64,000 nt of DNA from an uncultured delta proteobacterium (GTDB lineage: Bacteria; Myxococcota; Myxococcia; Myxococcales; Myxococcaceae): the NCBI GenBank assembly GCA_963771175.1, contig CAVYSY010000001.1:217562-281561 (forward strand), read 5' to 3'. Made by a program: the position numbers and the translations under genes. Below the pieces are notes generated by a model. The model was not told the DNA's origin. It saw only the letters and a program-made list of their open reading frames with translations, and ran no database searches. Shown here piece by piece: positions 19,900 to 63,738 of the stretch (the stretch's first letter is position 1; each line of letters starts with the position of its first letter).

Positions 19900-21795
19900 T
19901 CACCCGGCGAGCGCGAGCTCGATGCGGCCGAGGTTCTCGTCGGTGGAGGCCACGCGCACCCGCAGCGGCATGCCGATGGTGAAGGTGCGCGCCCGGCCCA
20001 CGAGGGACGTCTCCCTCGGGTCGGGCTGGTAGGGCCCGTCCGGCAGCGTGTCCGCCGGGAGGTAGCCCTCCACCAGCATGCCGTCGAGCTGGACGAGCAC
20101 GCCGAAGGGCTTCACCCGGGTGATGCGCCCCGTGAACTCCGCACCCACGTGTGCGGCCATCACCCGTGCCTCCAGCACGCGGTGGCGATCCTTCTCGGCG
20201 CGGTGGGCGGTGCGGGAGCGCTCGTTGACGTGGACCGCGAGCTCCTCGACGGCGGGGTCCTCATGGACGAAGTCGCGCCGGCCCCGCAGGTACTGCTTGA
20301 GGGCGCGGTGGACGGAGAGGTCCGCGTACCGCCGGATGGGGGAGGTGAAGTGGACGTAGGCTCGCGCCGCGAGGCCGAAGTGCATGGCCGGCACCACGGT
20401 GTAGCGCGAGGGGCCCAGCGAGCGTCGCAGCACCGAGCGCAGCGCGGGCTCGGAGGTGCAGCCGGCGATCTGCCGGTCGAACGCGGCGAGCGCGAGCGGG
20501 GTGAGCCTGCGGCCGAAGCCCGCGGCGAAGCCCGAGTGGTGCGCGAAGGCGGCCAGGTCGGCCACGCGCTGGGGATCCGGCTCGTCCTGGACGCGGAAGA
20601 GGGCGGGGACACCCCGATCGAGGAGCCATCCCGCGAGGGCCTCGTTGGCGGCCACCATGAAGCGCTCGATGAGGGCGTGCGCCGTGGTGGGCCGCACGGC
20701 CTCGATGCCGGAGACCTCTCCCGTCTCCTCGTCGAAGGTGAAGCGGGCCTCCTCGCGCGCCATCTCGATGCCACCGCGCCCGGCCCTCGCCACCGCCAGC
20801 CGGGCCGCCGCCGCGCGGAACCACGGCAGGGCTTCGCGCACTGTCGCCATCGGCTCGGACACCTCGCCCTTGTCGAGGTAGTCCGCCACCTCGGTGTAGC
20901 TCAGCTTCGCCCACGAGCGGATGAGGCTCTCGTACACGTCCATCGCGGTGACGTGCCCCTCCGGGTCGATGCGCAGCTCCACCGTGAGGCACAGCCGCTC
21001 CTCGCCGGGCACCAGGCTGAGCCAGTTCGTGGAGAGCTCCTCCGGGAGCATCGGCAGCATGGCTCCGGCGAGGTACACACTGCTCGTCCGCTCGCGCGCC
21101 ACACGGTCCAGCGCCGAGCCCTCGGGGACGAACTCCGCCGCATCGGCGATGGAGATGAACACGCGCAGCGCACCGTCCGCCCCCGCGGGCAGTACGGAGA
21201 CGGCGTCGTCGATGACGCGCGTCGAGGCAGAGTCCACGGTAACGGTGGGCACCTGGCGCAGGTCTCGCCGCGCCCCGAGCGCGTGGGGAATGGCGAGCAC
21301 GCGCCGCACCTCGGCCAGGGCCTCCGGGTCGAAGTCCCGGCGCAGCCCGTGACGCACGATGATGCGCTCCAGCGAGCGGTCCGCGCCCGGCTCGAGCTTG
21401 CGCAGGAGCCACGCCTTGCCGTCGGCGACGCGGGCCACCACCGCGTCACCCTGCTGCACGTCGACACCGGCCGTCTCCAGCGGCCAGTCGCCATTGCCCA
21501 GTTCGCGATCGATGCGCAGGTGCGGGGCTCCCTTGCGCGTCACCAGTTCGCCGTAGACCTCCTGGCGCGGACGCTTCAGGAGGGACAGCCCGCTCGCGCT
21601 CCAGCGTCCGTCAGCCGAGGCCGTCACGGTCGCGGAGACGACGTCATCGGCGAGGTAGGGGTTGAGCTCGGGCGGAGGGATGAACGCGGAGAGCACCTCG
21701 TCGGAGCCGGACGGGTGCACGATGAGGAAGCCGTAGCCGCGAGGGTGGACGTCGATGCGGCCGGTGACGGTGCGCGAAGGGGCGGGCGTTTCCAT
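19900..21795 (-). CDS. RNB-family (RNase II/R-like) exoribonuclease with S1 domain
   Basis: HPRGYGF, VDSASTRVIDDA, SVYL...PMLP, IERFMVAAN, HFTSPIRRYAD. Confidence 0.92.
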   Translation of the reverse strand: METPAPSRTVTGRIDVHPRGYGFLIVHPSGSDEVLSAFIPPPELNPYLADDVVSATVTASADGRWSASGLSLLKRPRQEVYGELVTRKGAPHLRIDRELGNGDWPLETAGVDVQQGDAVVARVADGKAWLLRKLEPGADRSLERIIVRHGLRRDFDPEALAEVRRVLAIPHALGARRDLRQVPTVTVDSASTRVIDDAVSVLPAGADGALRVFISIADAAEFVPEGSALDRVARERTSSVYLAGAMLPMLPEELSTNWLSLVPGEERLCLTVELRIDPEGHVTAMDVYESLIRSWAKLSYTEVADYLDKGEVSEPMATVREALPWFRAAAARLAVARAGRGGIEMAREEARFTFDEETGEVSGIEAVRPTTAHALIERFMVAANEALAGWLLDRGVPALFRVQDEPDPQRVADLAAFAHHSGFAAGFGRRLTPLALAAFDRQIAGCTSEPALRSVLRRSLGPSRYTVVPAMHFGLAARAYVHFTSPIRRYADLSVHRALKQYLRGRRDFVHEDPAVEELAVHVNERSRTAHRAEKDRHRVLEARVMAAHVGAEFTGRITRVKPFGVLVQLDGMLVEGYLPADTLPDGPYQPDPRETSLVGRARTFTIGMPLRVRVASTDENLGRIELALAG

Positions 21796-21858
21796 GGGGC
21801 GCAGACATGCTACCGCCTGACCTCGCGGCGCCGCCGGGCAATGTGACGCCGATGGCTT

Positions 21859-28211: not shown

Positions 28212-29491
28212 ATGGCGACCTTTGAATTCAAGCTGCCCGACCTCGGCGAAGGCGTGGTCGAGGGCGAGATCGTCAAGTGGCTGGTCAAGGCCGGCGACAC
28301 CGTCGAAGGAGGACCAGGTCGCTCGTGCGAGGTGATGACCGACAAGGCCACCGTCACCGTCCCCGCCCCACGGCGGGCAAGGTGCGTGCAGGCGCACGGC
28401 AAGGAAGGCGACATGGCCAAGGTCCACCAGCTCGCTGCGTGACGCTCGAGATCGAGGGCGCCGCGCCGGTCCAGGCCTCGGGTCAGGCGCGCCCGCCGCC
28501 GCCGCGCTGCCGCGGCCGCGCCGGCCACGTCCGCCGCAGGGCGACGGCGCGCAGGCTCGCGACACCAAGGTGCTCGCCACGCCGGTCACCCGCCGCATGG
28601 CGCGTGAGCACGGGCTCAACCTCGCGGAGATCTCCGGCATCGGGTCCCCAGGGCCGCGTGACCAAGGCGGACGTGAGGCGGCCCTCGCGGGCGCCAGCGC
28701 CGCCCCGCGCAACCGAGGTGGCCGCCTCGCCGCTGCGCAGGCCCGCCCGGCCGCGCCCTCGGGCTACCGGGCCGGGCGACGAGCGCATCCCGCTGCGCGG
28801 GCCTGCGCAAGAAGATCGCCGAGAAGATGGTGCGCTCGAAGTACACCGATGCCGCACTTCGGCTTCGTCGAGGAGGTGGACTGCCACCGAGCTGGTCGCG
28901 CTCCGCAAGCGCCTCAACGACGAGCCTGGCCGCCTCGGGCGAGAAGACGAAGCTGTCGCTTCCTGCCCTTCATCATCAAGGCCGTGATCGCGGCGATGAG
29001 GAAGTTCCCGCACCTCAACGCGAACTTCGACGAGGCGGCGCAGGAGCTCGTCGTCCGCGGCGAGTTCAACATCGGCATCGCGGTGGCCACCGACGACGGC
29101 CTCACCGTCCCGGTGATCAAGAACGCGGATCGGCTCACCCTGCGGGAGCTGGCGGACGAGGTCGTCCGTCTCGCGCAACGCGGCGCGCGACCGCAAGCTG
29201 AAGATGGAGGAGCTGACGGGCGGCACCTTCACCATCACCTCGCTCGGCCAGACCGGCGGCATCTTCGCCACGCCCATCATCAACCACCCCGAGGTGGCGA
29301 TCCTCGGCATCCACCGCATGCGCAAGCGCCCCGTGGTGGACAAGGACGACGAGATCGTGGTGCGCGAGATGATGAACGTCTCCATCTCGGCCGATCACCG
29401 CGTCATCGACGGCCAGGTCGCCGCGGACTTCGTGTACGAGGTCATCAAGTACCTGGAGCATCCGGAGATGCTGTTCCTCGAGATGGCCTGA
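28212..29491 (+). CDS. 2-oxoacid dehydrogenase E2 acyltransferase (many indels)
   Basis: [17 protein letters not shown] lipoyl Lys, [28 protein letters not shown]. Confidence 0.93.
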
Positions 29492-36757: not shown

Positions 36758-39700
36758 GTGACCGAACTTCCTCAGAGATCTGAAGCGTCATCTGGCCGAG
36801 TCCAAGCACCCGCTTGGGGTGAAAGAGCTTCTCAAGCTCACCGGCCTGCACCCTGGGCAGCAGACCCAGATCAAGCGCGTTCTCCGGGACATGGTCCGCC
36901 GGGGCGAGTTGCTCAAGGAGGGCAAGCGCTTCTTCCTGCGGAGCGAGCGGCCATCCCCGAACCGGGGCGAGGGTGATGGGCGGGGGCCTCCTCCCCACGT
37001 CCGGCGCCGGCCCGGACCCGAGGAAGCGGCTCCCGGGAGCTCGCCGGGGCCCGAGCGCGAGGAGCGCCGGTTCGGTGGCCCGAGCGAGGGCACCCGCGAG
37101 GAATCCCGTCCCGCGCCGGACGCGCGCTTCGCACCGCGGGGCCGTTTCGCGCGGGAGGAGCGTCCCGAGCCTCGGGGTCGCTTCGTGCGCGAGGGACGCG
37201 TGGAGACCGGTGGCCGTGCCCAGGGACCTGGTGCCGAGCCTCGTGGCCCCGAGCCTCGTGGCCCCGAGCCTCGTGGCCCCGAGCCTCGTGGCCCTGGTGC
37301 CGAGCAGCCCCGGGGGCGTTTCGCCCGGCAGGTGAGGCCCGGTGGAGAGCGCTTCGAGTCGCGAGGCCCCCAGCAGCCGGGTGGGCGTCCTGGCCAGCAG
37401 CAGCGGCCCGGTGGCGGTCGCGTCGAGGTGCGCGGCCCCGAGCCCCGAGGTCGCTTCGCCCGGGACGAGCGCCGGCCCGGTGGCGGTCGCGTCGAGCAGG
37501 ATCGTCGCTCCGGACGCGGGGGACGTTTCGCGCGGGAGGAGCGCTTCGAGCCGCGCGGCCGTGGAGGCCGGCGCGGGGCGGAGCAGGGGCAGGAGACCCT
37601 CACCGTCGAGGGCATCCTCCACGTCCACCGCGACGGCTACGGCTTCGTCCACCCCAGCTCCGGCGAGGGGGACAACATCTTCCTGCCGCCCCAAGAGGCC
37701 GCGCGGGCGCTCGACAATGACCGCGTCGTCGTGGAGGCCTGGGGTCGTCCCGGCCGCATGGAAGGGCGTCTGCTCAGCGTGCGCGATCGCGTGCGGCAGC
37801 TCGCCGTGGGCACCTACATGGAGCGCGGCCGGCGCGAGGCCCTGGTCGTTCCCCACGACAAGAACCTCCAGACGCAGGGCCCCATCCGCGTCCCGCCCTC
37901 TCAGATGGCTCGTGACGGGGACGTGGTGAAGGTGCGACTGGGCATTGGCGCGGAGCTGCTGGAGCCCGGCGAGGGCCTCTACGGCGAGGTCGCCGGCTCC
38001 ATTGGCAAGCCCGGAGACCCGAGCACCGAGGTGCTCTCCATCGCCTACTCGCAGGGCTTCTCCGACGAGTTCCCGCCCGAGGTCATGGACGAGGCGGATC
38101 GCATCCGCACGGTGGTGAGCGAGGAGGAGGCCCGCGCCGAGGGCCGCCGCGACTTGCGGGAGATGGCGCTCGTCACCATCGACGGCGAGGACGCCCGCGA
38201 CTTCGACGACGCCGTCTACGCGGAGCGGCACCCGCGGGGCTGGCGGCTGGTGGTGGCCATCGCCGACGTGACGCACTACGTCCGCGAGCACACGCCGCTC
38301 AACGCCGAGGCCCTGCGCCGCGCCACCTCCGTCTACCTGCCGGACCGGGTGCTGCCCATGCTCCCCGAGCGGCTCAGCAACGGCATCTGCTCGCTGCGTC
38401 CCGACGAGGACCGGCTGTGCATGGTGGCCGACATGGTGCTCGACCCGCACGGGCGGCTCCTCTCCAGCGAGCTGTACCCGGGCGTCATGCGCAGCCAGGC
38501 CCGCTGCACCTACAACGAGGTGCAGGACGTCCTCGATGGCAAGGACGTCCCCCACCGCAACGCCTTCAAGCTCCACTTCGAGCGGCTCTGGAGCTGGCCC
38601 GCGCGCTGACGCAGATGCGCAAGGAGCGCGGCGCCATCGACTTCAACCTGCCCGAGCACAAGGTGATGATGGGCGAGGACGGTCTGCCCGCCCGCATGGA
38701 GCGCCGCGAGCGCAAGGACAGCCACCGGCTCATCGAGGAGTGCATGCTCGCCGCCAACGAGGCGGTGGCGAAGTTCTTCGCCGACGAGGGCCTGCCCAGC
38801 GTCTACCGCTACCACGGTGAGCCCGACGAGGAGAAGCTGGCCGTCTTCGCCCAGCTCGCGCAGGCCTACGGCTTCCGCCTGCTGCCCGCGGAGCATCTCC
38901 TCGAAGGATCTCAACGCCTTCATGGCCCAGCTCCAGGGCCACCCCGAGGAGCGCGCCCTCAACCAGCTCCTGCTGCGCTCGATGATGCAGGCCGTCTACA
39001 CGGCCTCGGACATCGGCCACTACGGCCTGGCCGCCGAGTACTACCTCCACTTCACCTCGCCCATCCGCCGCTACCCGGACCTGCTCGTCCACCGGCTCCT
39101 CAAGGCCCACTGGGCTCGCAGCGGGCAGCAGCGCTCCCCCGCGCAGCTCGAGCGCGAGGAGCAGATGCTGGAGGAGATGGCCGCCCAGAGCTCCGAGCGC
39201 GAGCGCGCCGCCATGCAGGCCGAGCGCGAGGTCGTCTCCTTCTACGCCGCCCTGATGATGAAGGACCGGCTCGGCGAGGAGTTCGCCGCCACCGTCACCG
39301 GCCTCGTCGAGTTCGGCTTCTTCGTCGAGCTCGATGAGGTCCACGTCGAGGGGCTCGTCCGCGCCGACTCGCTCGGTTTCGGTACGCGCTTCGACAAGGC
39401 CCTGCACTCCTTCACGCTGCCGGGTGGCTTCCGCGTCCGCGTCGGGCAGAAGGCCCGGGTGCGGCTCGTCAACGTGAACCTGGCCCTGCGGCGGATCGAG
39501 TTCGATGCCCTCGAGGTTGGGGGCAAGACGATTGGGGCCCTGCGGGAAGTCGATCGGGTGGAGCAGAAGGCCCAGAAGCACCAGCTCCGCGAGGATCGGA
39601 AGCAGGCCATGCGTGCCGCGCGTGAGCGGGAGCGCGAGGAGCGCTGGGGCCCGCGTGCTGCTGGGGCCGAGCTCTCGATGGCCGAGGCCGAGGCGCTGCG

Positions 39701-40262
39701 GACGCGGGTCGCCGAGGAGGCAGCTCCGGCCGCGCAGGGAGGGGTCGAGGAAGTGGCTCCTGCCGCCGTGGAGCGGATGCCCGAGGTTCCCGCGGAGGTG
39801 GAGCGGGCCGCCGAGGAGGTGCCGGCCGTGGCCGATCGCATCCGCGCCCTCGCCGCCCGTGGCGAGCGGACAGAGGTCGAGGAGGCCCAGCCGGTTCGGG
39901 CCGTTGCTCCCACGCGGCGCCGGAAGGTCGCCGCCGCGGCCGAGGAGAAGCCGGCGCGTGCGAAGCGGGCCGCTGGGGCTCGGAAGGCTGCTCCGGCGAA
40001 GAAGGCTCCGGCTCGCAAGGCCGCCGCGAAGAAGCAGGCCGTGGCGGGTGGGGCGAAGAAGAAGGCCCCGGCTCGCAAGGCCGTGACGAAGGCCGCCGCG
40101 AAGAAGACGACGCGGGCCGCCGCCAAGAAGGCTCCCGCCGCGAAGAAGACGACGCGGGCCGCCGCCAAGAAGGCTCCCGCCAAGGCTCGCTCCGCGGGTG
40201 GAGCCAAGGCGAAGGCCGGCGCGAAGAAGACCGCTTCCTCTCGCAAGGGGAAGAAGCGGTAG
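36758..40262 (+). CDS. rnr: Ribonuclease R with RG/PRG-rich insertion and H1-like C-terminal tail (indels near 36775, 38590, 38885)
   Basis: HRDGYGF, TIDGEDARDFDDA, SVYLPDRVLPMLPE, IEECMLAAN, HFTSPIRRYPD, S1 domain. Confidence 0.93.
37236..37294 (+). repeat. Intragenic tandem repeat, 4 x 15 bp (EPRGP)
   Basis: GAGCCTCGTGGCCCC x4. Confidence 0.95.
40095..40178 (+). repeat. Intragenic tandem repeat, 2 x 42 bp (AAKKTTRAAAKKAP)
   Basis: Exact duplication in the RNase R tail. Confidence 0.9.
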
Positions 40263-40310: not shown

Positions 40311-41903
40311 TCAGTCGAGGCGGAACTCTCCCTGGATGAAGGGCATGTCCGCCGTCATCCCGTGCTCGCGGCAGTATGCGATGAGCTTTCGCGACTCGAC
40401 GAGCTGCGGCGAGGTCTCCGTGTAGCCGAGCACCATCACGTGGCTCAGCCAGGGCTCGCGGCCCATGGCGTAGACGTAGACCTGCTTGGGGTTGAGCCTG
40501 TTGACGATCTCGATGGCGCGCTCGCTGTTCGAGCCATTGAGCCGCCGCGACTGATCCGCCTTCCTCGGCAGCGGCGTCGTCAACAGCGGCCCGTACATCC
40601 AGCTCAGCGGGGCGCCCTCACTCTCCATTCCGATGAAGAGCACGTCGATCTCACCCACCATCCTCCGGACATGGTCGTAGAGGCGGGGCTCGATCGCATT
40701 GGAGTCGGCCGCCATGAGCAGCGACCTGCCCCCCAGCTGGACCAGGTGGGCGATCTTCGCGCGGATGTTCAGGTCCCCGTGCTCGCCCAGGAAGGGCAGG
40801 CCGGTCAGCGAGCCCCCGGGGATGTCCAGGGTCTCCATCTCGTCGATCTCCACCACGTTGCGGAAGCCCGTGTGGCGCAGCAGCAGTTTGAGCGAGGGAT
40901 CCGCCAGCGCCCCACCGTTGCTCCGGGGAACGACGATCGTTCCGATGCGCTTGCGGAGCTGCAGCAGCGTCTCCAGCATCAGGTGATCGGCGTGGCCGTG
41001 CGTGATGAGGACGTAGTCCAGCTTCTCCGGCAGGTCCGCGATGGTGAAGCGCGGCAGATCCGCGGCGTACTCGTAGCTGAGGACGGGGTCCGTCAGGATG
41101 CTGACGTCACGCGTCTCCAGCAGCACGCACGCATGGCCGAAGTAGCGCACCCGCACGCCCTCGCCGTCGTACTTCGAGCGCGGGCGCGGCGGCTCCTCGG
41201 TGAAGAAGGTCGAGAACACCTCGGCGTCCGCTCCCCGGATGCCCAGGGCCTCCAGGATGGGCTCCACCGGGCCGGGGGTGTCCCTCATGGCGAAGAGCGC
41301 GTCCAGCGCCTCGTGACGGAAGGGGACGTGGACGTGGACGGTGCCATCTCCCCCGAGTCGCGGCGTGCTGAAGACGTAGGGCCGGGCGTCCCCCGAGAGC
41401 TGCCGGAACGCGAGGCTCTGCGAGGACTCCCGGTAGTGGGGGCCGTTGTAGAGCAGGGCCTCGATGAAGCGGACCGATGGCCGGTTGTTCAGGTCGTACG
41501 TCAGCTCCACATAGCCGCGGAGGATGTCCGGGACCTGCTTGTACAGCGACTCCAGCGACATGCCCGCCGGGGCATTGGCCAACAGCCGCTCGAGCTCTCC
41601 CAGGGCCTGCGCGAGCTGGAGCGTGGCCGCCTGCTCCTTCTGGGTCCGCTCCAGGAGGAGCTTCACCTCGGGGGCCTTGTCGGCGCCGGCGTTGATGTAC
41701 GGGCCGCCTCGCAGCGCCGGATCCTTCAGGGCGGCGACGTGCAGGTCCGGCGCCGTCACGAAGGACTGCATGAGCTTCAGGTGCAGGTTCGTGACGAACA
41801 GGGGCGCGGTTGTCGGCGGTACCAGGTACCACCACGCGTACCACTGGTTGTAGAGCGGCTCGACGGCGACGTTGGGCTTCAGGTACCGGGCAGGTGCGGT
41901 CAT
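40311..41903 (-). CDS. CmlA-type non-heme diiron beta-hydroxylase (MBL fold)
   Basis: 530 aa; N-terminal YLKPNVAVEPLYNQWYAW; YFGHAC; THGHADH; FLGEHGDL; AADS; VYAMGREPW. Confidence 0.85.
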   Translation of the reverse strand: MTAPARYLKPNVAVEPLYNQWYAWWYLVPPTTAPLFVTNLHLKLMQSFVTAPDLHVAALKDPALRGGPYINAGADKAPEVKLLLERTQKEQAATLQLAQALGELERLLANAPAGMSLESLYKQVPDILRGYVELTYDLNNRPSVRFIEALLYNGPHYRESSQSLAFRQLSGDARPYVFSTPRLGGDGTVHVHVPFRHEALDALFAMRDTPGPVEPILEALGIRGADAEVFSTFFTEEPPRPRSKYDGEGVRVRYFGHACVLLETRDVSILTDPVLSYEYAADLPRFTIADLPEKLDYVLITHGHADHLMLETLLQLRKRIGTIVVPRSNGGALADPSLKLLLRHTGFRNVVEIDEMETLDIPGGSLTGLPFLGEHGDLNIRAKIAHLVQLGGRSLLMAADSNAIEPRLYDHVRRMVGEIDVLFIGMESEGAPLSWMYGPLLTTPLPRKADQSRRLNGSNSERAIEIVNRLNPKQVYVYAMGREPWLSHVMVLGYTETSPQLVESRKLIAYCREHGMTADMPFIQGEFRLD

Positions 41904-42067
41904 CGGAGTGTTCGCGGCCGAGGGGACGAGCGAGAGCCTATGTCATGCGCTGGGACGAGGGGAACCCGCCCTGGCTCGTGACTCGTGCTCGCTCGGGCCC
42001 TGGGATTCCTTGTGACCGCTGGGGGCTCGTGAAACCATCCGGCGCGAGCGAAAAAAGGAGCCGGAGC

Positions 42068-42544
42068 ATGAGGACTGTTTCCCTGCGACCGATGTCGGAC
42101 GAGGTCTACGCGGCGTACATGGAGAGCCACATCCATGAGTACGCCGGGGACCGGATGCGCACGGACTTCGAGACCCGAGAGGAGGCCGAGCAGGTCACCC
42201 GCAAGCAGATCTCCAGCACCCTCCCCGACGGCCCGCACACGAAGAACCACTACTTCTACGTCGTCACCGACGAGCAGTCGGGCGAGAGCGTCGGCCACGT
42301 GTGGCTCAACGTCCAGCCCGACACGCGACTCGCGTTCCTGTTCCACATCATCATCCACCCCGAGAAACGTCGCTCCGGCTACGGGCGCCAGACGATGCAG
42401 CTCATCCTCCAGCGGGCGCGCGAGCTGGGCGGTCGCGTGTTCTGGCTCAACGTCATGGGCCACAACCACGAGGCGATTGCCTTCTACAAGGCCATCGGCT
42501 TCAACACGGCCGCCATGCACATGAACATGCTGCTGGAGGGCTGA
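42068..42544 (+). CDS. GNAT N-acetyltransferase
   Basis: IHPEKRRSGYGR acetyl-CoA motif; LNVMGHN..AIAFYKAIGF. Confidence 0.9.
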   Translation: MRTVSLRPMSDEVYAAYMESHIHEYAGDRMRTDFETREEAEQVTRKQISSTLPDGPHTKNHYFYVVTDEQSGESVGHVWLNVQPDTRLAFLFHIIIHPEKRRSGYGRQTMQLILQRARELGGRVFWLNVMGHNHEAIAFYKAIGFNTAAMHMNMLLEG

Positions 42545-42578: not shown

Positions 42579-45500
42579 TCAACCCGCGAGCAGCTCCCTC
42601 AGCCCGCTCAGGTGGGCCTTGGCCAGTCCCTCCACCGTGGCCCGCTCGTGCAGGTTCTCGCTGTAGCGCCACTCGAGCTGCAACCGGCCCTCCACCACGC
42701 TCGCGAGGATCTGGAGCACGTGGCTCCTTCGCGCGGAGGGATCCCGATCCGCCCCGGCGAGCTCCTTCGCCAGCCGGAAGCTCGTGGTCTCCGTCATGAG
42801 GCGCTGGCTCAGGTAGTCGAAGCTGATCTCCGCGGCGGGCAGTGCCTGGAGCCTCCGCGCTTGCTCCCCCTCGCCGAGGAAGCGCAGCAGTCCATAGCCC
42901 AGGCCCCGCCCCGGAATCCGCGCCAGCGTCGCGTCCACCTCGCCGAGCAGTTCCCGCGTGTCCCGGGCCCGCTGCACGTCCAGGCGCACCGGGCAGTCCG
43001 TCGTCATGCAGCCCAGCGTCCGGGAGAGATCCACTGACTCGTCTCTCGCTTCGCGACCATGTCGGCCGAGGTCCAGCAGCACCGGAGCCCCATCCATCCA
43101 GCGGGAGATGACTCTGGCCAGCGGCGCGAGCAGCACGGTCTCCAGCCCTCGGCCCAGCACCGCCGGCGTGTCCCGGAGCAGGTGCTGCGTCTCGGCCCCG
43201 GTCAGCTCCACCCGGACGGAGCGCATCGAGCCCTCCGTGTTGGTGCCACCCGGACGCTCCACGGGCACTCGACCCGACGTGCCGCCGAGCTCCGTCAGCC
43301 AGTGCTCCGCCTCCCGCTGCGTCTCCTCCGAGCGGGCCAGGTTCGCCAGGCTCTCGGCCCAGGTCCGGAACGAGCTGGTGCGCGGTGGGAGCTGGACCGC
43401 CTCGCCCCGCAGGAGCTGCGCGTAGGCGGCCTGCAGCTCGTCGACGAAGAGCCCCCATGAGAGCCCGTCCGCCACGAGGAAGTGGAGGACGATGAACAGG
43501 CGGCTCGGCCTCCCGGAGCCGAGGTCCAGGTGGGCCACACGCACCAGCGGGCCCCGCGACAGCTCCAGCTGCTGCAGGGCCTCCGTGGTCGTGCGCAGGG
43601 TCGCCGCGAGCTCCGCGTCCGGTACGCCGGAGAGATCGATCCGCGTGTAGGGCACCTCGTCACCCGGGTCGCCCGCGTCGAGCTGCCGCCAGCCCTTCTC
43701 GTCTCGGAGGAACCGGAGGCGGAGCGCGTCATGACGAAGGAGCAGCAGGCGCAGCGCCTCGCGGAGCTGGGCGTCCTGGACGGGCTCGTGGACCTCCAGC
43801 AGCAGCGAGCGGTTCCAATGGTGCGGCGCGGGCAGCTCCTGCTCCAGGAAGCGCCGCTGCGCCGGAGTGAGCGGCACCGGGCCTCCGGTGGGTGCGACCT
43901 CGGGCTCCTGGGCGCGGGTCCCCACCACCGTCGCGAGCTGGGCGATGGTCTGGTTCTGGAAGAGCTGCCGCGCCGTGAGCGACAGGCCGGCCTGGTTCGC
44001 CCGGGCGATCAGCCGGATGGCCATGAGCGAGTCGCCGCCCCGATCGAAGAAGCCGTCGTGGATGCCCACTCGCTCCAGCTTCAGGACCTCCGCCCAGAGC
44101 CGCGCCAGCGTCTCCTCGATGGCGTTGCGGGGCGCCACGAAGTCCCGCTCCGCGTCCTCGGCGTCGGGGGGTGGTGCGGAGAGCGCCAGGGCCTTGCGAT
44201 CCACCTTGTCGCTGGCCAGCCGGGGCAGGGACTCGTGGAACACGACGCGGGCCGGTACGAGGTAGTGCGGGAGCCGGGTGCCGAGCCGCGAGCGCAGCTC
44301 CGCCTCCGACAGCGCCTGCCCGGCCGTCACCACGTGCGCCTCCAGCCTGCCCTCTCCCGAGGCATTCTGTCGGTGCAGCACCACCGCCTCCCGCACCTCC
44401 GGGAGTTGCTCGAGCATGGATTCGATCTCTCCCAGCTCGATGCGGAAGCCCCGGATCTTCACCTGGTGATCGCGACGGCCGAGGAACTCGAGGTGGCCGT
44501 CCGGCAGCAGTCGCGCCAGATCTCCGGTCCGATACATCCGCGCGCCCGCCTCGCCACTGAACGGATCCGGCACGAAGGCGGCCGCCGTGAGGGCCGGCTG
44601 GTCCAGGTAGCCCCGTGCCACCCCGAGGCCGCCCAGGTACAGCTCACCCGGAGCACCCGCGGGCACCAGTCTCAGGTGCGCGTCGAGCACGTAGGCTCGG
44701 ACCCCCGGCAGTGGCCTGCCGACGGGCACGCGTGGGCGCTCGAAGGCGAGGCCCTGGGGTGGCTCATAGACAGTCGCGGTGATGGTCGCCTCGGTGGGGC
44801 CGTAGGCGTTCAGCCAGCGCACGCCGTCGCCCACCCGCTCGCGCCAGCGCGCCAGTCGCTCGGGGGAGGGCGCCTGGCTGCCGGTGACCACCAGCCGCAC
44901 CGAGCGCGGCACTGGTGAGGAGAGCCGCGGCAGCTCGTCCACCCACTCGTGCCAGTAGGGCGCTGGCAGGTTCACCACCGTCACGCCGTTGCGGTCGATG
45001 AAGTCCCGCAGCTCGGCCACGGAGTCGACGGTGCCCGTGCGCCGCGGCACCACCGTCGCGCCGCTCGCCAGCGTGGGGAACAGCTCCTCGGCGGCCACGT
45101 CGAAGCTGAGTGCCGAGAACTGCAGGACGCGATCCTCCGGCGTCAGCCCGTAGCGGGCCACCACCGCGCGCAGGTGGTTCGCCAGGGCCCGATGGGGCAC
45201 CACCACGCCCTTGGGTCGACCCGTCGAGCCCGAGGTGTGGAGGACATAGGCCGCGCCCTCGGGGGATACCGTCACACCCGTCGGGCCGTCCTCCTCTCGC
45301 GCCAGTGCCTCGCCCAGCGCGCCGAGGCACAGCACTCGCGCCCGGCCGCCGGAGACCCGGGCCTCGAGGGACTCCTGCGTCAGCACCACCGGCGCCGCCA
45401 CGTCCTCCAGCAGCGAGGCCAACCGCTCGCGGGGCGCGGAGGGATCCAACGGCACGTAGGCCGCACCCGCCTTGAGGATGCCCAGCATCGCCACCACCGC

Positions 45501-48500
45501 CTCCGCCGAGCGCTCCATGCACAGGCCAATCCGGATCTCCGGACCCGCGCCCATCCGGCGCAGGAGGTGCGCGAGCCGGTTCGCCTTGCGATCCAGCTCG
45601 CCATAGGTGAGCACGCCACCATCCCAGACGAGCGCCGGACGCTCCGGGGCTCGCGCGGCCTGTTGCTCGAACGCCTCGTGCACGGTGAGCACCGGCGGCA
45701 CCAGCGTTCCCTCGCCCCAGGTCTCGCGCAGCTCCAGGGGTGATGGAAGCGCCAGCTCCGACAGCCTCCGCTCCGGCTGCTCCGCCAGGGCTTCCAGCGT
45801 CCGCTCCACCTCCCGCGCGAGTCGCGCCACGGTGGCCTCGTCGAACAGCTCGGCGCTGTACTCGAAGGCCCCGGCGTAGCCCTGGGGCGTGGGTCGCAGC
45901 CACAGCGTCAGATCGAACTGGGTGCTCCCGGTCTCGAGCTCCAGGGGCTGGATGGACAGGCCCTCCAGCGAGGCGGGCATGCTCGACTCCTCCTGGAGCG
46001 AGAGCATCACCTGGAAGAGGGGCGAGCGGCTCGGATCCCTCTCCGGGTGCAGCTCCTCCACCAGCTTCTCGAAGGGGAGATCCTGGTGCGCGTAGGCGCC
46101 CAGCGTCGCCTCCTTCACCCGCTCCAGCAGGGCTCGCCCGCTGGGGTTCCCGGAGAGATCGGTGCGCAACACGAGCGTGTTGACGAACATGCCGATCATC
46201 CCCTCCAGCTCCGTGCGTCCACGCCCCGCGATGGGCGAGCCCACCGCGATGTCGCTCTGCCCGCTGAAGCGACCGAGCGCCGCACTGAACGCGGCCAGGA
46301 GCACCATGAAGGGCGTCACGCTCTCGCGCCGGCCGAGCGCCTCCAGGGCGTCGCTCTGGCTCCGGGTGAGGGTGAAGGGACTCCGGGCCGCGCGGAAGGA
46401 GGGCGTGGGCGGCCGGGGCCGATCCGTTGGCAGCTCCAGGGGCTGGAGTCCCGCGAGGCGCTCCTTCCAGTACCCGAGTTGTGCGTCCAGCGCTGGGCCC
46501 TGCAACCACCGTCGCTGCCAGAGCGCGTAGTCGACGTACTGGAGGGAGGGCTCCGGAAGAGCAGGGGCCTCGCCACGCCTCGACGCCAGATAGAGAGCCA
46601 CCATCTCCCGGGTGAGCACGCGCAGGGACCAGCCATCCGCGATGAGATGGTGCAGCGTCACCACCAGCAGGTGGTCCTCCGGCGCGAGCCGGATGAGGGT
46701 GGCGCGGATCAGCGGCCCACGAATCAGCTCGAAGGGCTGGTCCACTTCCTCCGCCGCCAGGCGCAGTGCCGCCGCCTCGCGCTCTGCCTCTGGGATCGCG
46801 TCGAGCTCCACCCGCCTCAGCGCCAGCGAGGCCTGGGGGGCGATCTCCTGGACCGGCTGCCCATCGGTGGACGGGAAGGACGTGCGGAGGGACTCGTGCC
46901 GTCGTACCAGCCCGGTGAAGCTGGCCTCCAGGGCCGCCGCGTCCAGGGAGCCACGGAGCCGGAGCGCCTGCGGCAGATGGTAGGCACTCCCGCCCGGGGT
47001 GATCTGCTCCAGCATCCACAGCCGCTGCTGGGCGAACGAGAGCGGCAGCGGACCGTCGCGGAGGGCTCGCTCCAACCGGGGGGCGCCGTCCTCCTTCTTG
47101 GGGCTCGGCGTCCCGAGTCGCGCGGCGAGGCCGGCCACGGTGGGGTCCTCGAACAGCTCCTTCACCGTCAGCACCACGCCGAACTCATCATGCAGCCGCG
47201 AGACGATCTGCGTAGCGAGCAGCGAGTGGCCGCCCAGGTCGAAGAAGCCGTCGCGCGTGCCGATGGGCGAGAAGCCCAGGCACTCCTCCCAGATGGCCAC
47301 GAGCCGACGCTCCACGTCCGTGGTCGGCGCGACATAGGGCGTCTGGAGCGAGGAGGGGCGCTCGTGCTTGACGGAGGGCGTGCTCGCGGGCGTGGTGGAG
47401 GAGGCGCGCGTGGGCGCGGGCTGCAGCGGGAGCGCCCGCGAGCCAGTAATGCTGGCGCTCGAAGGGGTAGGTGGGCAGCGACACGCGCCGACGGCGGTGG
47501 CCCTTGTGGAAGCCCTTCCAATCCACCGGGACTCCGGAGAGCCACAGCGCTCCGAGTGTCCGCAGGGCGAAGGCCATGTCGGAGGCATCGCGATCCTGCG
47601 GGTGCCGCAGCGACGACAGCACCGCGCGCCCGGCCGGCCGCTCCGGGTGCCGCAGCGCCAGCGTGGCCAGCGTGCGTCCCGGCCCCACCTCCAGCAGCAC
47701 GGTGTCCTGCGCCTGGAGCAGTCGCTTCACGCCGTCCGAGAAGCGCACCTCGTGCCGCAGGTGGCGGACCCAGTAGTCGGGGATCGTCGCCTCGGCGGGG
47801 GTGATCCAGTCGCCCGTCACGTTGGAGACGAACGGAATCTTCGGTGGCCGCAGCGTCACCTTCGCCAACCGCGCGGCGAACGGAGCCAGGGCGGGCTCCA
47901 TCATGGCCGAGTGGAACGCGTGCGACGTGTGCAGCCGCGTGCTGGACACGCCCCGCTCGGCGAGCAGCCGCTCCAGGTGCTGGATGTCCTCCGCCGGACC
48001 GGCGACCACGCTCAGCGCGGGACCATTGACGGCGGCCAGGGAGAGCCGCTCGCCGAGCAGTCCTCGCAGCTCCGCCTCGGGCAGCGGGACGCGAGCATGG
48101 CGCCGGGGGGCAGCCGCTGCATGAGCCGGCCCCGGGCGGCGACCACCGCCAGCGCGTCCTCCAGCGAGAAGACACCCGCGAGGCACGCGGCCACGTACTC
48201 GCCGACGCTGTGGCCGAGCATCGCGCGCGGGCGCACGCCCCACGCCTCCCACTGCTGCGCCAGCGCGTACTCGACGGCGAAGAGCGCGGGCTGGGTGAGC
48301 CCCGTCTGCGCGAGCCTCGCCTCCGCCTGCTCCCGCTGCGCCTCGGGCGGGTAGAGGACCTGGCGGAGGTCCACGCCCAGGTGCGGCTTCAGCAGCCGGG
48401 CGCAGTGCGTCGAGCTGCTCGCGGAACACCGGCTCGCTCGCGTACAGCTCGCGGCCCATGTCCACGTACTGCGCGCCCTGGCCGGGGAACATGAAGGCCA

Positions 48501-50088
48501 CGCCCGGCTCGGCCTTGACTCCCCCTCCAGCACCCGCTCGGGAGCGCAGGCCCGTGAGCGCGCCCAGCGCCTCCTCGCGCGTGCGGCACACCACCGCGCG
48601 CCGGTGCGCGAAGGCCCGGCGGCCCAGCTGCAGCGTGTAGGCCACGTCGGCCAGGGGCAGCTCCGGGTGCTCCTCCAGGTGCGGGCCAGCCTGTCCGTCG
48701 CGCGCGCGAGCGCCGTGGGCGTCCTCGCCGAGAGCACCAGCACCTGCGCCCCACGCCCGGCGGACGAGGGCTCGGACGGGCGCCTCCTCCAGCACCACGT
48801 GGGCGTTGGTGCCGCCGATGCCGAACGAGCTGACGCCGGCCCGGCGGGGCGCCGTCGCGCTCGGGCCAGTCGGCGCAGCCGGGCGTTCACGTAGACGGGC
48901 GCTGCGGGCGAAGTCGATCCGCGGGTTCGGCCGCTCGAAGTGCAGGCTGGGCGGGAGCTGCCGTGCTGGAGCACCAGCACCGTCTTGATCAGCCCGGCCA
49001 CGCCGGCCGCCGCGTCGAGGTGGCCGATGTTGGTCTTCACCGAGCCGATGGCGCAGAAGCCCGTGGCCTCGGTCGTCCGCGCGGAAGGCCTCGCGTCAGC
49101 GCGGCGATCTCGATCGGATCGCCCAGCGCCGTCCCGGTGCCGTGCGCCTCGACGTAGCCGATCGTCGCCGGGCTCGACGCCGGCCATCGTCGTGCGCCAC
49201 GGCGATCGACCTCGGCCTGCCCCTCGACGCTGGGCGCGGTGAAGCCCACCTTGAGCGAGCCGTCGTTGTTGATCGCCGATGCCGCGGATGACGGCGCGGA
49301 TGTGGTCGCCGTCGGCGAGCGCGTCCTCCAGCCGCTTGAGCACCACGACGCCCACGCCGCTGCCGACCACGGTGCCCTGCGCCTCGGCGTCGAAGGCGCG
49401 GCAGTGCCCGTCCGGCGAGAAGATGCCGCCCTCCTGGTACAGGTAGCCAGCCACCTCCTGCGGCAGCGCAGCGGACACGCCGCCGGCCAGCGCCATGTCG
49501 CACTCGTCGGCGAGCAGGCTCTGGCAGGCCATGTGGATGGCGACCAGCGAGGTCGAGCAGGCGGTCTGCACGGTCACGCTCGGCCCTCGCAGGTTGAGCT
49601 TGTAGGAGATGCGGGTGGCCAGGAAGTCGCTCAGGCCGCCGATGGCCAGTTGCAGCAGGTTCTCCGGCATCCCGTTGCCGCGCAGCGCCTCCAGCATGTA
49701 CGTGCTCATGCTGGCGCCCGCGAAGACGCCGATCCGCCCGCCGTAGCGCTGCGAGTCGTAGCCGGCGTCCTCCAGCGCCTCCCAGGCGCACTCCAGCAGC
49801 AGCCGGTGCTGCGGATCCGTCTGCTCGGCCTCGCGCGGGCTGTAGTCGAAGAAGGCCGCGTCGAAGAGGTCGGTGTCCTCCAGCCTGCCCCGGGCCTTCA
49901 CGTAGCGAGGATTCGCCAGCAGCTCGGGAGGCACCCCGGCCGCCCGCAGCTCCTCGTCCGAGAAGGTGGAGAGGGCCGGGATGCCGGCGCGCAGGTTCTC
50001 CCAGAACTCCGCGAGGTCGCGGGCCCTGGGGAAGCGGCCCGCCATCCCGATGACGGCGATGCCCTCGGTGGCGAAGGAGTCTTCTGCC

Positions 50089-50096
<8 letters not shown>
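42579..50096 (-). CDS. Hybrid PKS-NRPS: KS-AT-ACP-C-A(Arg-like)-T-E(degenerate); indels at 47.4-49.3 kb
   Basis: VQTACSTSL, EAHGTGT, GHSVG and HAFHS (malonyl AT), [30 protein letters not shown], terminal HFLVADGLSW. Confidence 0.92.
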
Positions 50097-62031
<11,935 letters not shown>

Positions 62032-62244
62032 CAGCTGTCTCCGGTGGAGTCGGGGCGGCGAGGGATGCGAAATCTTAGACAAGTCCAAGGAACGGCAGCA
62101 ATCCGGATGAAAGCCAGAAAGCCGGACTTCACGGAGGGCATTCCCTGTCGTTAGACTGGCTCGCGGACGAGCGGAGATCTCGGTGGGCGCGAATCTTCCT
62201 GCCCGGGTGCGAGTGCGCTCGTCAAACTCGTCAAAGGAGCCCTG

Positions 62245-62886
62245 ATGAAACAGGTAGTCGATGATTTCCACGCCCTCTACCTGGGCGAGCTGGCGATGCG
62301 AGAGGCCGGGGGCGGCGGCGAGACGTGGATGGGCGTGCAGATCCTCAAGTGCCCGCTCGACCTGTGGGTGTACCAGGAGATCCTCTTCGAGGTGCGGCCC
62401 GATCTCATCATCGAGACGGGGACCTACCTGGGGGGCTCGGCGCTGTACCTGGCGCACCTGTGCGAGCTGCTCGGCAAGGGGCGCATCCTCTCCATCGATC
62501 TGACGCACCGGGGCTCGCTCCCCACGCACCCGCGCATCGAGTACCTACAGGGCTCGTCGGTGGATCCGACCATTCTCGCCGCCGTGCGGCAGCGGATCCG
62601 CCCGGAGGAGAAGGTGCTCGTCATACTGGATTCGGATCACCACGCGCCCCACGTGCTGGAGGAGCTGAAGGCATACGCGCCGCTCGTCACCCGGGGCAGC
62701 TACCTGATCGTCGAGGACACCAACCTGAACGGCCACCCCATCATCCAGCCCGGCTTCGAGGGGGAAGGGCCCACCGAGGCGCTGGAGCAATTCCTGCCCA
62801 CGGCCCCCGAGTTCGAGCGAGATCTGGCTCGTGAGAAGCTCCTGTTCACCTTCAACCCTGGCGGCTTCCTCAAGAAGGTTGCCTGA
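62245..62886 (+). CDS. CmcI ('cephalosporin hydroxylase') family, probable SAM-dependent O-methyltransferase
   Basis: [26 protein letters not shown]...GGS, VILDSDH, YLIVEDT. Confidence 0.88.
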
Positions 62887-62907
62887 CCCGCAGGCGGAAA
62901 CGACGAC

Positions 62908-63738
62908 ATGAACGCGGACACCATCGCGGCGATTGACAAGACGTTGGGCGCCCTGAAGGAGCAGTACGGCAAGGACGCGCTCGAGCGGGTAGACGAGTGC
63001 GTTCGGATCAGCCTCGGGCGCAAGGAGCTCCCGCGACTTCCGGAGCACCAGAAGCCCACGCTGTTCTACTTCCCGGACCTGGGCACGAAGCCCTGGTACG
63101 AGCCCGAGGAGTACGAGGAGACGCTGGCGCTGACGCGGCGCCTGGAGGCGGCGGCTCCCCTCATGCGCGAGGAGTACCTCAACAAGGCGCGGGGCCAGGG
63201 CAAGTCGCTCGCCTACGAGGACCAGTTCCCGGGCCGCTTCAAGGACATCCGCGCCCAGGACTGGCACTCCTTCTATCTGCGGCGCAAGGGCGAGGCGAGC
63301 GTGGAGGAGAACTGCGCGGCCTGCCCGCGCACGGCCGGGGTGATGCGGGAGCTGGAGCAGCACCTCAGCCCTGGTGGCGCCTTCTTCTTCTCCGTCATCG
63401 GCCCGAAGTCGGGGGTGCCTCCGCACCACGACACCACCAACCTCAAGTTGACGGTGCAGCTCGCGCTCATCATCCCCCCCGGGTGCGGCATCCGCGTGGG
63501 CGGCATCACCAAGGAGTGGCACGAGGGCAAGTGCATCCTCTTCGATGACACCTTCAAGCACGACGTGTGGAACGACAGCTCCGAGCCGCGCGTGTGCCTC
63601 CTGGTGGATATCTGGCACCCCGGCCTCACCGTGGTGGAGCGCAAGTCCCTCGTCGCGCTCCACCAGGTGATCGAGGATCAGCTCGGCCTCGACTACAAGG
63701 CGCCCTGGGCGGTGGACCTCACCGGCCTGGAGGACTAG
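62908..63738 (+). CDS. Aspartyl/asparaginyl beta-hydroxylase family 2OG-Fe(II) dioxygenase
   Basis: NCAACPRT, PPHHD, W.EGK..LFDDTFKHDVWN, R..LLVDIWHP. Confidence 0.92.
   Translation: MNADTIAAIDKTLGALKEQYGKDALERVDECVRISLGRKELPRLPEHQKPTLFYFPDLGTKPWYEPEEYEETLALTRRLEAAAPLMREEYLNKARGQGKSLAYEDQFPGRFKDIRAQDWHSFYLRRKGEASVEENCAACPRTAGVMRELEQHLSPGGAFFFSVIGPKSGVPPHHDTTNLKLTVQLALIIPPGCGIRVGGITKEWHEGKCILFDDTFKHDVWNDSSEPRVCLLVDIWHPGLTVVERKSLVALHQVIEDQLGLDYKAPWAVDLTGLED

Follow-up and report, generated by a model that had tools for sequence, protein, structure and literature searches.

How a non-ribosomal product is released determines which scaffold it ends up with, and few routes of release are known: thioesterases (TE), reductases, fungal terminal condensation (CT) domains, penicillin-binding-protein (PBP)-type TEs and stand-alone Dieckmann cyclases. 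We analyzed a 64,000-nucleotide stretch of DNA (the window; G+C ~70%) from an uncultured member of the Myxococcaceae (assembly GCA_963771175.1, contig CAVYSY010000001.1, positions 217,562 to 281,561; G000:C1:217562-281561 in our numbering), whose right edge is the end of contig C1. The window carries a hybrid assembly line of non-ribosomal peptide synthetase (NRPS) and polyketide synthase (PKS) modules that ends in an altered domain of the epimerization (E) type, hereafter the EL (E-like) domain, with neither a TE nor a reductase behind it. Here we describe this domain, its conservation among myxobacteria and the roles that it may play at the end of the line.

A hybrid assembly line ends in an E-type domain

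The minus strand of the window, from ~62070 down to 42582, encodes one hybrid assembly line of the type FAAL-NRPS-PKS-NRPS. Pfam matches on the individual frame pieces give the domain order: a FAAL-like A domain (DIP2-type) with its T domain, three C-A-T modules, KS-AT-ACP, C-A-T and a terminal Condensation-family domain. Lipo-initiation and the three NRPS modules (FAAL-T-C-A-T-C-A-T-C-A-T) occupy approximately 50100..62070, a region with many frame switches that is collinear with a 3918-amino-acid (aa) orthologue from genome G158; the T domain of the first NRPS module has no Pfam match on the broken frames, and the intact G158 orthologue has all four T domains. The KS-AT part of the PKS module (47446..50096) lacks KR, DH and ER domains, contains about four frame switches and is collinear with the intact orthologue P0014. 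It is followed by the ACP (47115..47309; PP-binding, residues 94-158 of P0001), the condensation domain by which the last amino acid is linked to the PKS product (45732..47048; Condensation, residues 181-619), the adenylation domain of the last module (44205..45671; AMP-binding and AMP-binding_C, residues 640-1128), a last T domain of GGDS type (43923..44141, its Ser within GGDSL at 44016-44039) and finally the EL domain itself (42582..43889, 436 aa), whose stop codon lies at 42579-42581.

Intact orthologues aligned by tblastn place frame changes near 61400, 59710, 58405, 57350, 48960, 48405, 48085 and 47440, with perfect collinearity throughout, and leave 47432-42591 as a single uninterrupted frame of 4.8 kb that contains the EL region. 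Frame switches occur across the whole window, in the NRPS (47440-62000) and in housekeeping genes alike: the RNase R gene is broken in two (36762-38606 / 38670-40259), and the E2 and E3 genes are partial (e.g. 29117-29488). Because housekeeping genes are equally broken and the 9.8-Mb genome has a completeness of 81.66%, we read the frame switches as assembly indels and not as decay of the cluster. The cluster is severed on its upstream side at the end of C1 and continues at the start of contig C50 of the same genome.

Family, fold and altered motifs of the EL domain

The EL domain matches the Pfam Condensation family (PF00668; E 8.7e-56) and, with 81.4 bits, passes the cut-off (74.2) of TIGR01720, which marks the C-terminal half of E domains. 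Its top ten sequence matches among solved structures are all E domains (PvdL, TycB3, GrsA, BacC and TycA; E 1e-62 to 7e-47), while ordinary C domains reach only ~1e-10 in the same search of Protein Data Bank (PDB) sequences. An AlphaFold 2 model of the domain (predicted local distance difference test, pLDDT, 87.7) points the same way: the first 12 Foldseek PDB matches listed for this predicted structure are all E domains, with template-modelling (TM) scores of 0.87-0.91, as compared to 0.73-0.80 for other C-family domains and 0.75-0.76 for the glycopeptide X-domain.

Four core motifs are altered, exactly as and where a sequence-only reading of the window had placed them: firstly, the His motif reads HFLVADGLSW (43455..43484, minus strand, as are the others; codons CAC TTC), with Phe in place of the second His; secondly, EGHGRE has become GRHGRE (43050..43067), with loss of the Glu and gain of an Arg; thirdly, RTVGWFT has become RTLGCMT (43002..43022), with a Cys that is invariant in the clade; and fourthly, FNYLGQ has become FDYLSQ (42804..42821). 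In the alignment with PvdL, HF stands opposite HH, G opposite the E of EGHGRE, C opposite W and D opposite N. To place these changes we used 128 canonical E domains taken from 120 listed protein matches, alongside 13 rows of the EL domain and its orthologues. Where 98% of canonical domains have the second His, ten of the 13 EL rows have Phe and the other three Ala; the Glu-Gly pair is replaced by G275 and R276 in 13/13 (canonical E 97%, G 85%); the Trp is replaced by C294 in 13/13 (canonical W 97%); and FNYLGQ carries D358 in 13/13 and S361 in 12/13 (canonical N 98%, G 99%). As the canonical residues are near-universal among the 128 E domains, the combination of motifs in the EL domain is far from chance. 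By contrast to these changes, the carrier domain in front of EL is of GGDS type in 9/9 cases, just as it is before canonical E domains (126/126); other GGxS sites mostly read GGHS. By its sequence, then, the EL domain is without the residues on which epimerization depends, as HHxxxD has lost its second His and EGHGRE its Glu.

The altered domain is conserved across distant myxobacteria

The best non-self match among 41 related genomes (G002) is 60% identical, keeps HFLVADG and belongs to an open reading frame (ORF) that stops directly after the domain. A search of 5.8 billion proteins returned eight proteins of 2493-2529 aa with KS-AT-ACP-C-A-T-E architecture and 44-58% identity in the EL domain. 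Conservation of HF in homologues, which the sequence-only reading had named as a check, was borne out, in that homologues keep HF or, in Sorangium, HA: H[F/A] is found in all 8 fetched orthologous proteins and in 4 translated loci. Four of the eight orthologues, including that of Corallococcus terminator, combine HF with GRHGR, three from Sorangium combine HA with GRLGR, and that of Polyangium fumosum combines HFLVADA with GRHGRQ. A phylum-wide sample of 401 genomes contained four with a match at E <=1e-115 (G000, G158, G193 and G285), and when 185,579 species representatives were scanned for the pattern, five loci came up, titled Myxococcus sp. CA023, an Archangium sp. (metagenome-assembled genome), Sorangium sp. 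So ce315, Corallococcus terminator BB12-2 and Polyangium fumosum DSM 14668; these lists were drawn from overlapping collections and are not independent counts. A profile search with the EL domain in 1.84 billion representatives did not reveal the width of the clade, as giant NRPSs with summed scores dominated it, and the best single-domain score in its list (474 bits) belongs to a canonical E domain.

In a tree of the 13 EL rows and a random draw of 55 from the 128 canonical rows, the EL domains form one clade inside the E domains (Shimodaira-Hasegawa-like approximate likelihood ratio test 100; stem 0.37). The clade stays separate in a second tree of eight non-redundant EL rows and four other degenerate E domains. 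Such degenerate domains have arisen independently of EL: P0127 (5162-5603) has HQ, P0139 (3552-3976) has HG, QRHGRE and GC, and P0123 (1273-1703) has HR. P0139 thus has the same G-to-R and W-to-C changes as EL, yet does not group with it. The domains of P0127 and P0139 are protein-terminal and keep a tail of the communication-mediating (COM) type, and that of P0123 is internal.

Canonical E domains have 123 positions with a conservation of 85% or more. EL keeps 94 of them, and the 29 that have changed lie mostly in or beside E core motifs. They include H137, R146, D151, K170-T172, E275, G276, E280, V292 and W294-T296, as well as E320, R323, Y332, N358 and L360-Q362; the KTT of the LPxKTTSF region is absent. 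Conversely, 13 positions (R13, R27, A140, L201, E250, G267, G275, R276, C294, D298, D358, Q393 and R408) are invariant in 8/8 EL lineages and carry these residues in <15% of canonical E domains. Orthologues are 44-58% identical in EL, 50-69% in the C domain, 51-69% in the A domain and 67-85% in the KS domain. These comparisons indicate that EL is under purifying selection despite the loss of the epimerase residues, and that new residues in its former active-site motifs, most of them charged or nucleophilic, have come under constraint. The newly fixed, mostly polar set comprises Arg276, Cys294, Asp298 and Asp358, along with Arg13, Arg27, Glu250 and Arg408; judging from the positions of the motifs, these new residues may line one pocket. 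The EL domain is a genuine, selectively maintained offshoot of the NRPS epimerization domains.

No partner synthetase or release enzyme follows the EL domain in the contexts examined

In every case the EL domain is the last domain of a KS-AT-ACP-C-A-T-EL protein that ends a FAAL-primed three-module NRPS line. The tail behind it measures -1 to 14 aa in 9/9 proteins, whereas the tail of canonical protein-terminal E domains is at least 25 aa long in 69/73 and typically 30-39 aa. Likewise, a TPSDF-like COM motif is found in 0/9 EL tails as compared to 56/73 canonical ones.

The sequence-only reading had also held that the assembly line ends without a TE or reductase, and we found neither by Pfam in the last ORF of the line; nor was a gene for a TE, a reductase, a PBP-type cyclase or another NRPS found in the cluster, and this holds for the complete Sorangium chromosome (L025) as well. 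There, no partner NRPS gene lies in the cluster beyond the assembly line itself, and the nearest PF00975 and PF00144 matches are ~300 kb and ~450 kb away, respectively. In the window genome, the nearest PF00975 match on C1 lies ~97 kb from EL, C50 has no PF00975 match, and the first 20 kb of C50 contain no NRPS or TE. No TE lies within 10 kb downstream of EL in L026 (a relative's cluster) or L027 (Polyangium), nor within the ~5 kb available in L013, and the two genomes searched for PF00144 have no match close to the cluster. An intact HH motif accompanied by a downstream TE-bearing gene, which would have told against the sequence-only reading, was seen in none of the contexts examined. One of its suggestions fared less well: hand-off of the chain, or docking, to a module encoded elsewhere is disfavored, as EL proteins have no COM tail and the Sorangium cluster has no other NRPS.

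In G158, a separate NRPS with a C-A-T-TE terminus is encoded 12 kb upstream of the EL cluster (L020, C169:140120-154999), together with an MFS gene, a stand-alone FAAL and a gene for a 693-aa protein. Neither the first 20 kb of C50 nor the Sorangium cluster has a counterpart to it, and we therefore treat it as a neighboring cluster.

A proposed role in chain release

The PKS module that precedes EL suggests what substrate the domain would meet. Intact orthologues have KS-AT-ACP with no Pfam match for KR, DH or ER, and the AT motif in their PKS modules is HAFH, which we take to denote a malonyl-specific AT. Because the module is without KR and its AT is of this malonyl type, the last carrier should hold lipopeptidyl-CO-CH2-CO-NH-CHR-CO-S-T. 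An N-(beta-ketoacyl)aminoacyl thioester of this kind is the textbook precursor of 3-acyl tetramic acids, which form by Dieckmann cyclization and thereby release the chain without a TE. Since the GGDS carrier typical of E-domain partners is kept, EL most likely still receives the pantetheine arm and its thioester.

We tentatively favor the reading that EL is a repurposed off-loading domain, at somewhat less than an even chance. It would bind the tethered chain and promote its intramolecular release, and in the likeliest route the acidic C-2 methylene would attack the thioester, with Dieckmann (or Lacey) cyclization yielding a 3-acyl tetramic acid. The ancestral chemistry of the epimerase, a carbanion next to a thioester, would in this way be redirected to the more acidic C-2 methylene by means of the new set of Arg, Cys and Asp residues. 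In a less specific variant, EL would catalyze hydrolysis or another cyclization. The most explicit form of the proposal is that EL is an epimerase-derived, TE-independent functional subtype of the condensation superfamily, not recognized before, that carries out Dieckmann release of an N-(beta-ketoacyl)aminoacyl chain through a new Arg/Cys/Asp site in place of His/Glu, its products being a new family of lipopeptidyl tetramic acids; in this full form we regard the proposal as unlikely. The suggestion of the sequence-only reading that the domain is repurposed or that release is non-canonical remains the best account of the data, as an interpretation and not as a demonstration.

Several considerations weigh against an off-loading role. 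To our knowledge, every characterized catalytic release domain of the C family (e.g. fungal CT) needs the second His, which EL does not have. Stand-alone enzymes can release beta-ketoacyl-aminoacyl thioesters, or these can cyclize by themselves, and the helical 466-506-aa protein or the M28 peptidase encoded in some of the clusters (see below) could serve. As all EL domains come from one orthologous cluster family, their association with a KR-less PKS module is a single evolutionary observation. The cluster of the window genome is split over C1 and C50, and the gap between them is unread. Finally, the open-access literature that we searched yielded no description of this domain or cluster and no precedent for a C- or E-type domain in Dieckmann cyclization or terminal release.

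Alternative explanations

The alternative that we take most seriously, which is possible if on the unlikely side, is that EL serves as a non-catalytic scaffold, much as the X-domain or siderophore interface domains do: it would recruit tailoring enzymes in trans, with the AspH-type, cupin-8/JmjC and CmlA-like hydroxylases and the CmcI-like and PRMT-like methyltransferases as candidate partners, and release would be spontaneous or left to an unrecognized enzyme. Both catalytic residues are gone, as in the X-domain with the HRxxxDD motif described for it (PMC11546977), oxygenases and methyltransferases that act in trans are unusually numerous in the clusters (the AspH type occurs in 7/7 contexts), and purifying selection on EL together with largely charged new invariant residues would suit such a role. 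The changed and newly fixed residues lie in or beside active-site motifs, however, and are not scattered; the predicted fold is nearer to E domains than to the X-domain; the AspH type alone among the tailoring genes is common to all clusters; a C-like interface domain is reported as dispensable in the account of the myxoglucamide pathway (PMC13638107); and chain release is left unexplained. It is less probable still that EL is a vestigial E domain without activity, retained because it helps the megasynthase to fold, to stay stable or to oligomerize, with release that is spontaneous or due to housekeeping hydrolases, or with the chain passed to an NRPS elsewhere. LgrA is described as ending in such an inactive E domain (PMC10510592), and P0127, P0139 and P0123 show that E domains do degenerate independently, but the two of these that are terminal keep their COM-type tail and the third is internal, whereas EL has no tail. 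Moreover, the 13 clade-specific invariant residues argue for constraint that was gained and not only lost, the complete Sorangium cluster lacks a partner NRPS, and EL is retained in loci of five genus titles with neither decay nor truncation.

That EL is still an epimerase, with a different acid/base set (e.g. Cys294 and Asp358) and a C-terminal D-residue made for a cyclase or hydrolase in trans, as in nocobactin NbtE or in surugamide-type lines with their PBP-type TEs, appears improbable to us. The E fold and the GGDS carrier are kept, and the motifs contain a conserved Cys and Asp. The Glu of EGHGRE has a role in epimerization, however, and its absence from EL counts against such activity, as does the need for a release enzyme, of which the clusters contain none. 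TE-less C-A-T-E termini are on record, as NbtE is described in connection with the epsilon-caprolactam of nocobactin (PMC7413640), and PBP-type TEs are described as requiring a C-terminal D-residue (PMC11735501), but PF00144 genes are absent from the surroundings of the cluster in both genomes searched, and epimerization by GrsA is reported to have dropped on mutation of the second His and the Asp of HHxxxD (PMC10510592), the former being the very residue that EL has lost. Lastly, the many frame switches in the window, housekeeping genes included, and the incomplete genome might suggest that an error-rich assembly, or a pseudogene in decay, accounts for the altered motifs. This explanation has a negligible chance: EL lies within the uninterrupted 4.8-kb frame, several of the changes require two base substitutions (CAC TTC among them, as the sequence-only reading had rightly argued in judging an error unlikely), and it is refuted by intact orthologues in other assemblies that carry the same changes.

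Comparison with known systems

Canonical E domains (TycA-E, 2XHG; TycB3-E, 6TA8; GrsA PCP-E, 5ISX; PvdL-E2, 9LCO) resemble EL in sequence family, predicted fold, the GGDS carrier and 94/123 positions, but EL differs in the second His (Phe/Ala), in Glu-Gly (Gly-Arg), in Trp (Cys) and in the Asn and Gly of FNYLGQ (Asp and Ser), and it lacks the KTT, the COM tail, a downstream C domain and a TE. TrdC, SlgL and NcmC belong to a family of stand-alone Dieckmann cyclases of bacterial tetramates, which act, without a TE, on beta-ketoacyl-aminoacyl thioesters of the kind expected before EL, and do so as separate proteins outside the C superfamily. Their likeness to EL, a member of the C superfamily, would be a functional analogy only. 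A hydrolytic C-like domain, CroK-C2 of the crocacin pathway, likewise provides TE-independent off-loading.

The X-domain of glycopeptide synthetases (Tcp12; 4TX2/4TX3), according to its description in PMC11546977, is like EL in that a C/E fold with a mutated His motif follows the last carrier, is thought to be non-catalytic and works in an assembly line reliant on oxygenases that act in trans. It lies between T and TE, however, carries HRxxxDD and recruits P450s, whereas EL carries HFxxxDG and ends its protein, with neither a TE nor a cluster P450. Fungal CT domains (e.g. TqaA) are likewise C-superfamily members at the C-terminus of a TE-less line, and are described as releasing the chain by intramolecular attack (PMC10510592); as that account has it, they are of C type, read SHxxxDx, need the second His and make macrolactams, and EL has no such His and is of E-type ancestry. 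The inactive terminal E domain of LgrA, as described in the same source (PMC10510592), and the domains of P0127 and P0139 share with EL an E-type domain with impaired motifs at the protein end, but these pass the chain to the next NRPS protein, whereas EL, in a clade of its own, has neither a tail nor a partner NRPS in the cluster. NbtE, of the nocobactin/mycobactin C-A-T-E type, ends its line in T-E as EL does, and the epsilon-caprolactam is said to arise from a terminal lysine (PMC7413640); compared with EL by this description, its E domain is given as active, its product is a D-lysine lactam, and no KR-less PKS module precedes it.

If EL is an off-loading domain derived from an E domain, or an organizer of tailoring on a TE-less bacterial line, this would be a new function for the condensation superfamily, and H[F/A]xxxD, GR[H/L]GR, GC and FDY without a COM tail would serve as a signature for genome mining. 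The signature flags an uncharacterized, heavily tailored lipopeptide-polyketide cluster that is common to distant myxobacteria. Should the Dieckmann proposal be true, lipopeptidyl tetramic acids would be expected from Archangium, Myxococcus, Corallococcus, Sorangium and Polyangium.

Neighboring genes and clusters in relatives

Two tailoring genes lie upstream of the assembly line in the window and are transcribed divergently from it. The nearer encodes a CmcI-like O-methyltransferase (62155..62883, plus strand; RMNT_CmcI, E 5e-63), orthologues of which adjoin EL genes in G002, G158, G193 and L026; the second encodes an oxygenase of the AspH type (Asp/Asn beta-hydroxylase family; 62887..63735, plus strand; Asp_Arg_Hydrox, E 1.6e-44), with orthologues in 6/6 other contexts. 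A complex prediction for EL and this hydroxylase scored 0.00, which counts neither for nor against binding. Downstream of the line, a CmlA-like diiron beta-hydroxylase (40314..41942, minus strand; CmlA_N, E 8e-88, plus a metallo-beta-lactamase fold) is 66% identical to its orthologue in the Sorangium cluster. Between the two, and convergent with the NRPS gene, lies a gene for a GNAT acetyltransferase (41810..42541, plus strand; Acetyltransf_1, E 4e-17), whose longest ORF overlaps the stop-to-stop frame of the CmlA-like gene by ~130 bp on the opposite strand; its true start is probably downstream of 41810. We considered this gene as a conserved member of the cluster and rejected it, as the other clusters carry a GNAT-like gene that is not its orthologue.

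The continuation of the cluster on C50 (C50:1-12500, L031) encodes a 466-aa protein, a PRMT-like methyltransferase, an MFS transporter, an M28 peptidase, a second CmcI-like protein and a cupin-8 oxygenase, with a MutS2-like gene beyond them; no ORF in the first 1.8 kb is convincing. In G158, the EL gene is followed by genes for a CmcI-like methyltransferase, a GNAT-like protein, an MFS transporter and an AspH-type oxygenase, and the assembly line is preceded by genes for an unknown protein, a PRMT-like methyltransferase and a cupin-8/CmcI pair. The complete Sorangium cluster (L025) runs from kinase, FIST and SpoIIE genes through the FAAL-NRPS and KS-AT-ACP-C-A-T-EL genes to genes for a cupin-8 protein, an MbtH-like ORF, an MFS transporter, a PRMT-like methyltransferase, a 506-aa protein, the CmlA-like hydroxylase, the AspH-type oxygenase, a GNAT-like protein, a glycosyltransferase, a kinase and ArsR; we set its borders at the upstream kinase and FIST genes and the downstream glycosyltransferase, kinase and ArsR genes. 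Its MbtH-like domain occupies the C-terminal end (residues 225-275) of a 289-aa ORF (L025:13226-14092, plus strand), which may be a fusion or have a mis-set start. In Polyangium (L027), the 10 kb after EL encode a cupin-8 protein, an unknown protein, an AspH-type oxygenase, a MatE transporter, an M28 peptidase, a JmjC protein and a transposase.

The 466-aa protein of C50 is 64% identical to its G158 counterpart and belongs to an orphan family of 466-506 aa (44-65% identity) with invariant Cys and His residues, encoded at L031:1848-3248 (minus strand), L019:18568-19992 (minus), L025:16862-18268 (plus) and L027:13185-14570 (minus), and adjoining the PRMT-like methyltransferase gene in 3/4 clusters. 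The family has no match among PDB sequences or in Pfam, NCBIfam or the Atlas. A model of the window-genome member (G000:C50:1848-3248) is all-helical (pLDDT 68.8) and resembles generic helical bundles only (Z <=5.7), with no Foldseek match at E <=0.001; an SznF-like identity, which we had considered, was dropped for want of a match in sequence, family or fold. The protein may have an arginine-type residue as its target, or it may take part in release.

Two known pathways were considered as possible identities of the cluster and rejected: that of corramycin, described as having 12 modules and a TE (PMC10099666), and that of myxoglucamide, the genes of which, as described, differ (PMC13638107). 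We also tentatively derived a specificity code for the last A domain of the line. Counted from motifs, it is roughly D-V-E-N-V-T-A-I-T-K, which is not known to match any code; being unreliable, it is not used as evidence. Farther along the window, the sole cytochrome P450 gene (18625-19881, plus strand) lies ~23 kb from EL, beyond housekeeping genes, and the housekeeping part of the window includes two RNB (RNase II/R-family) genes, at 19903-21858 (minus strand) and 36762-40259 (plus strand).

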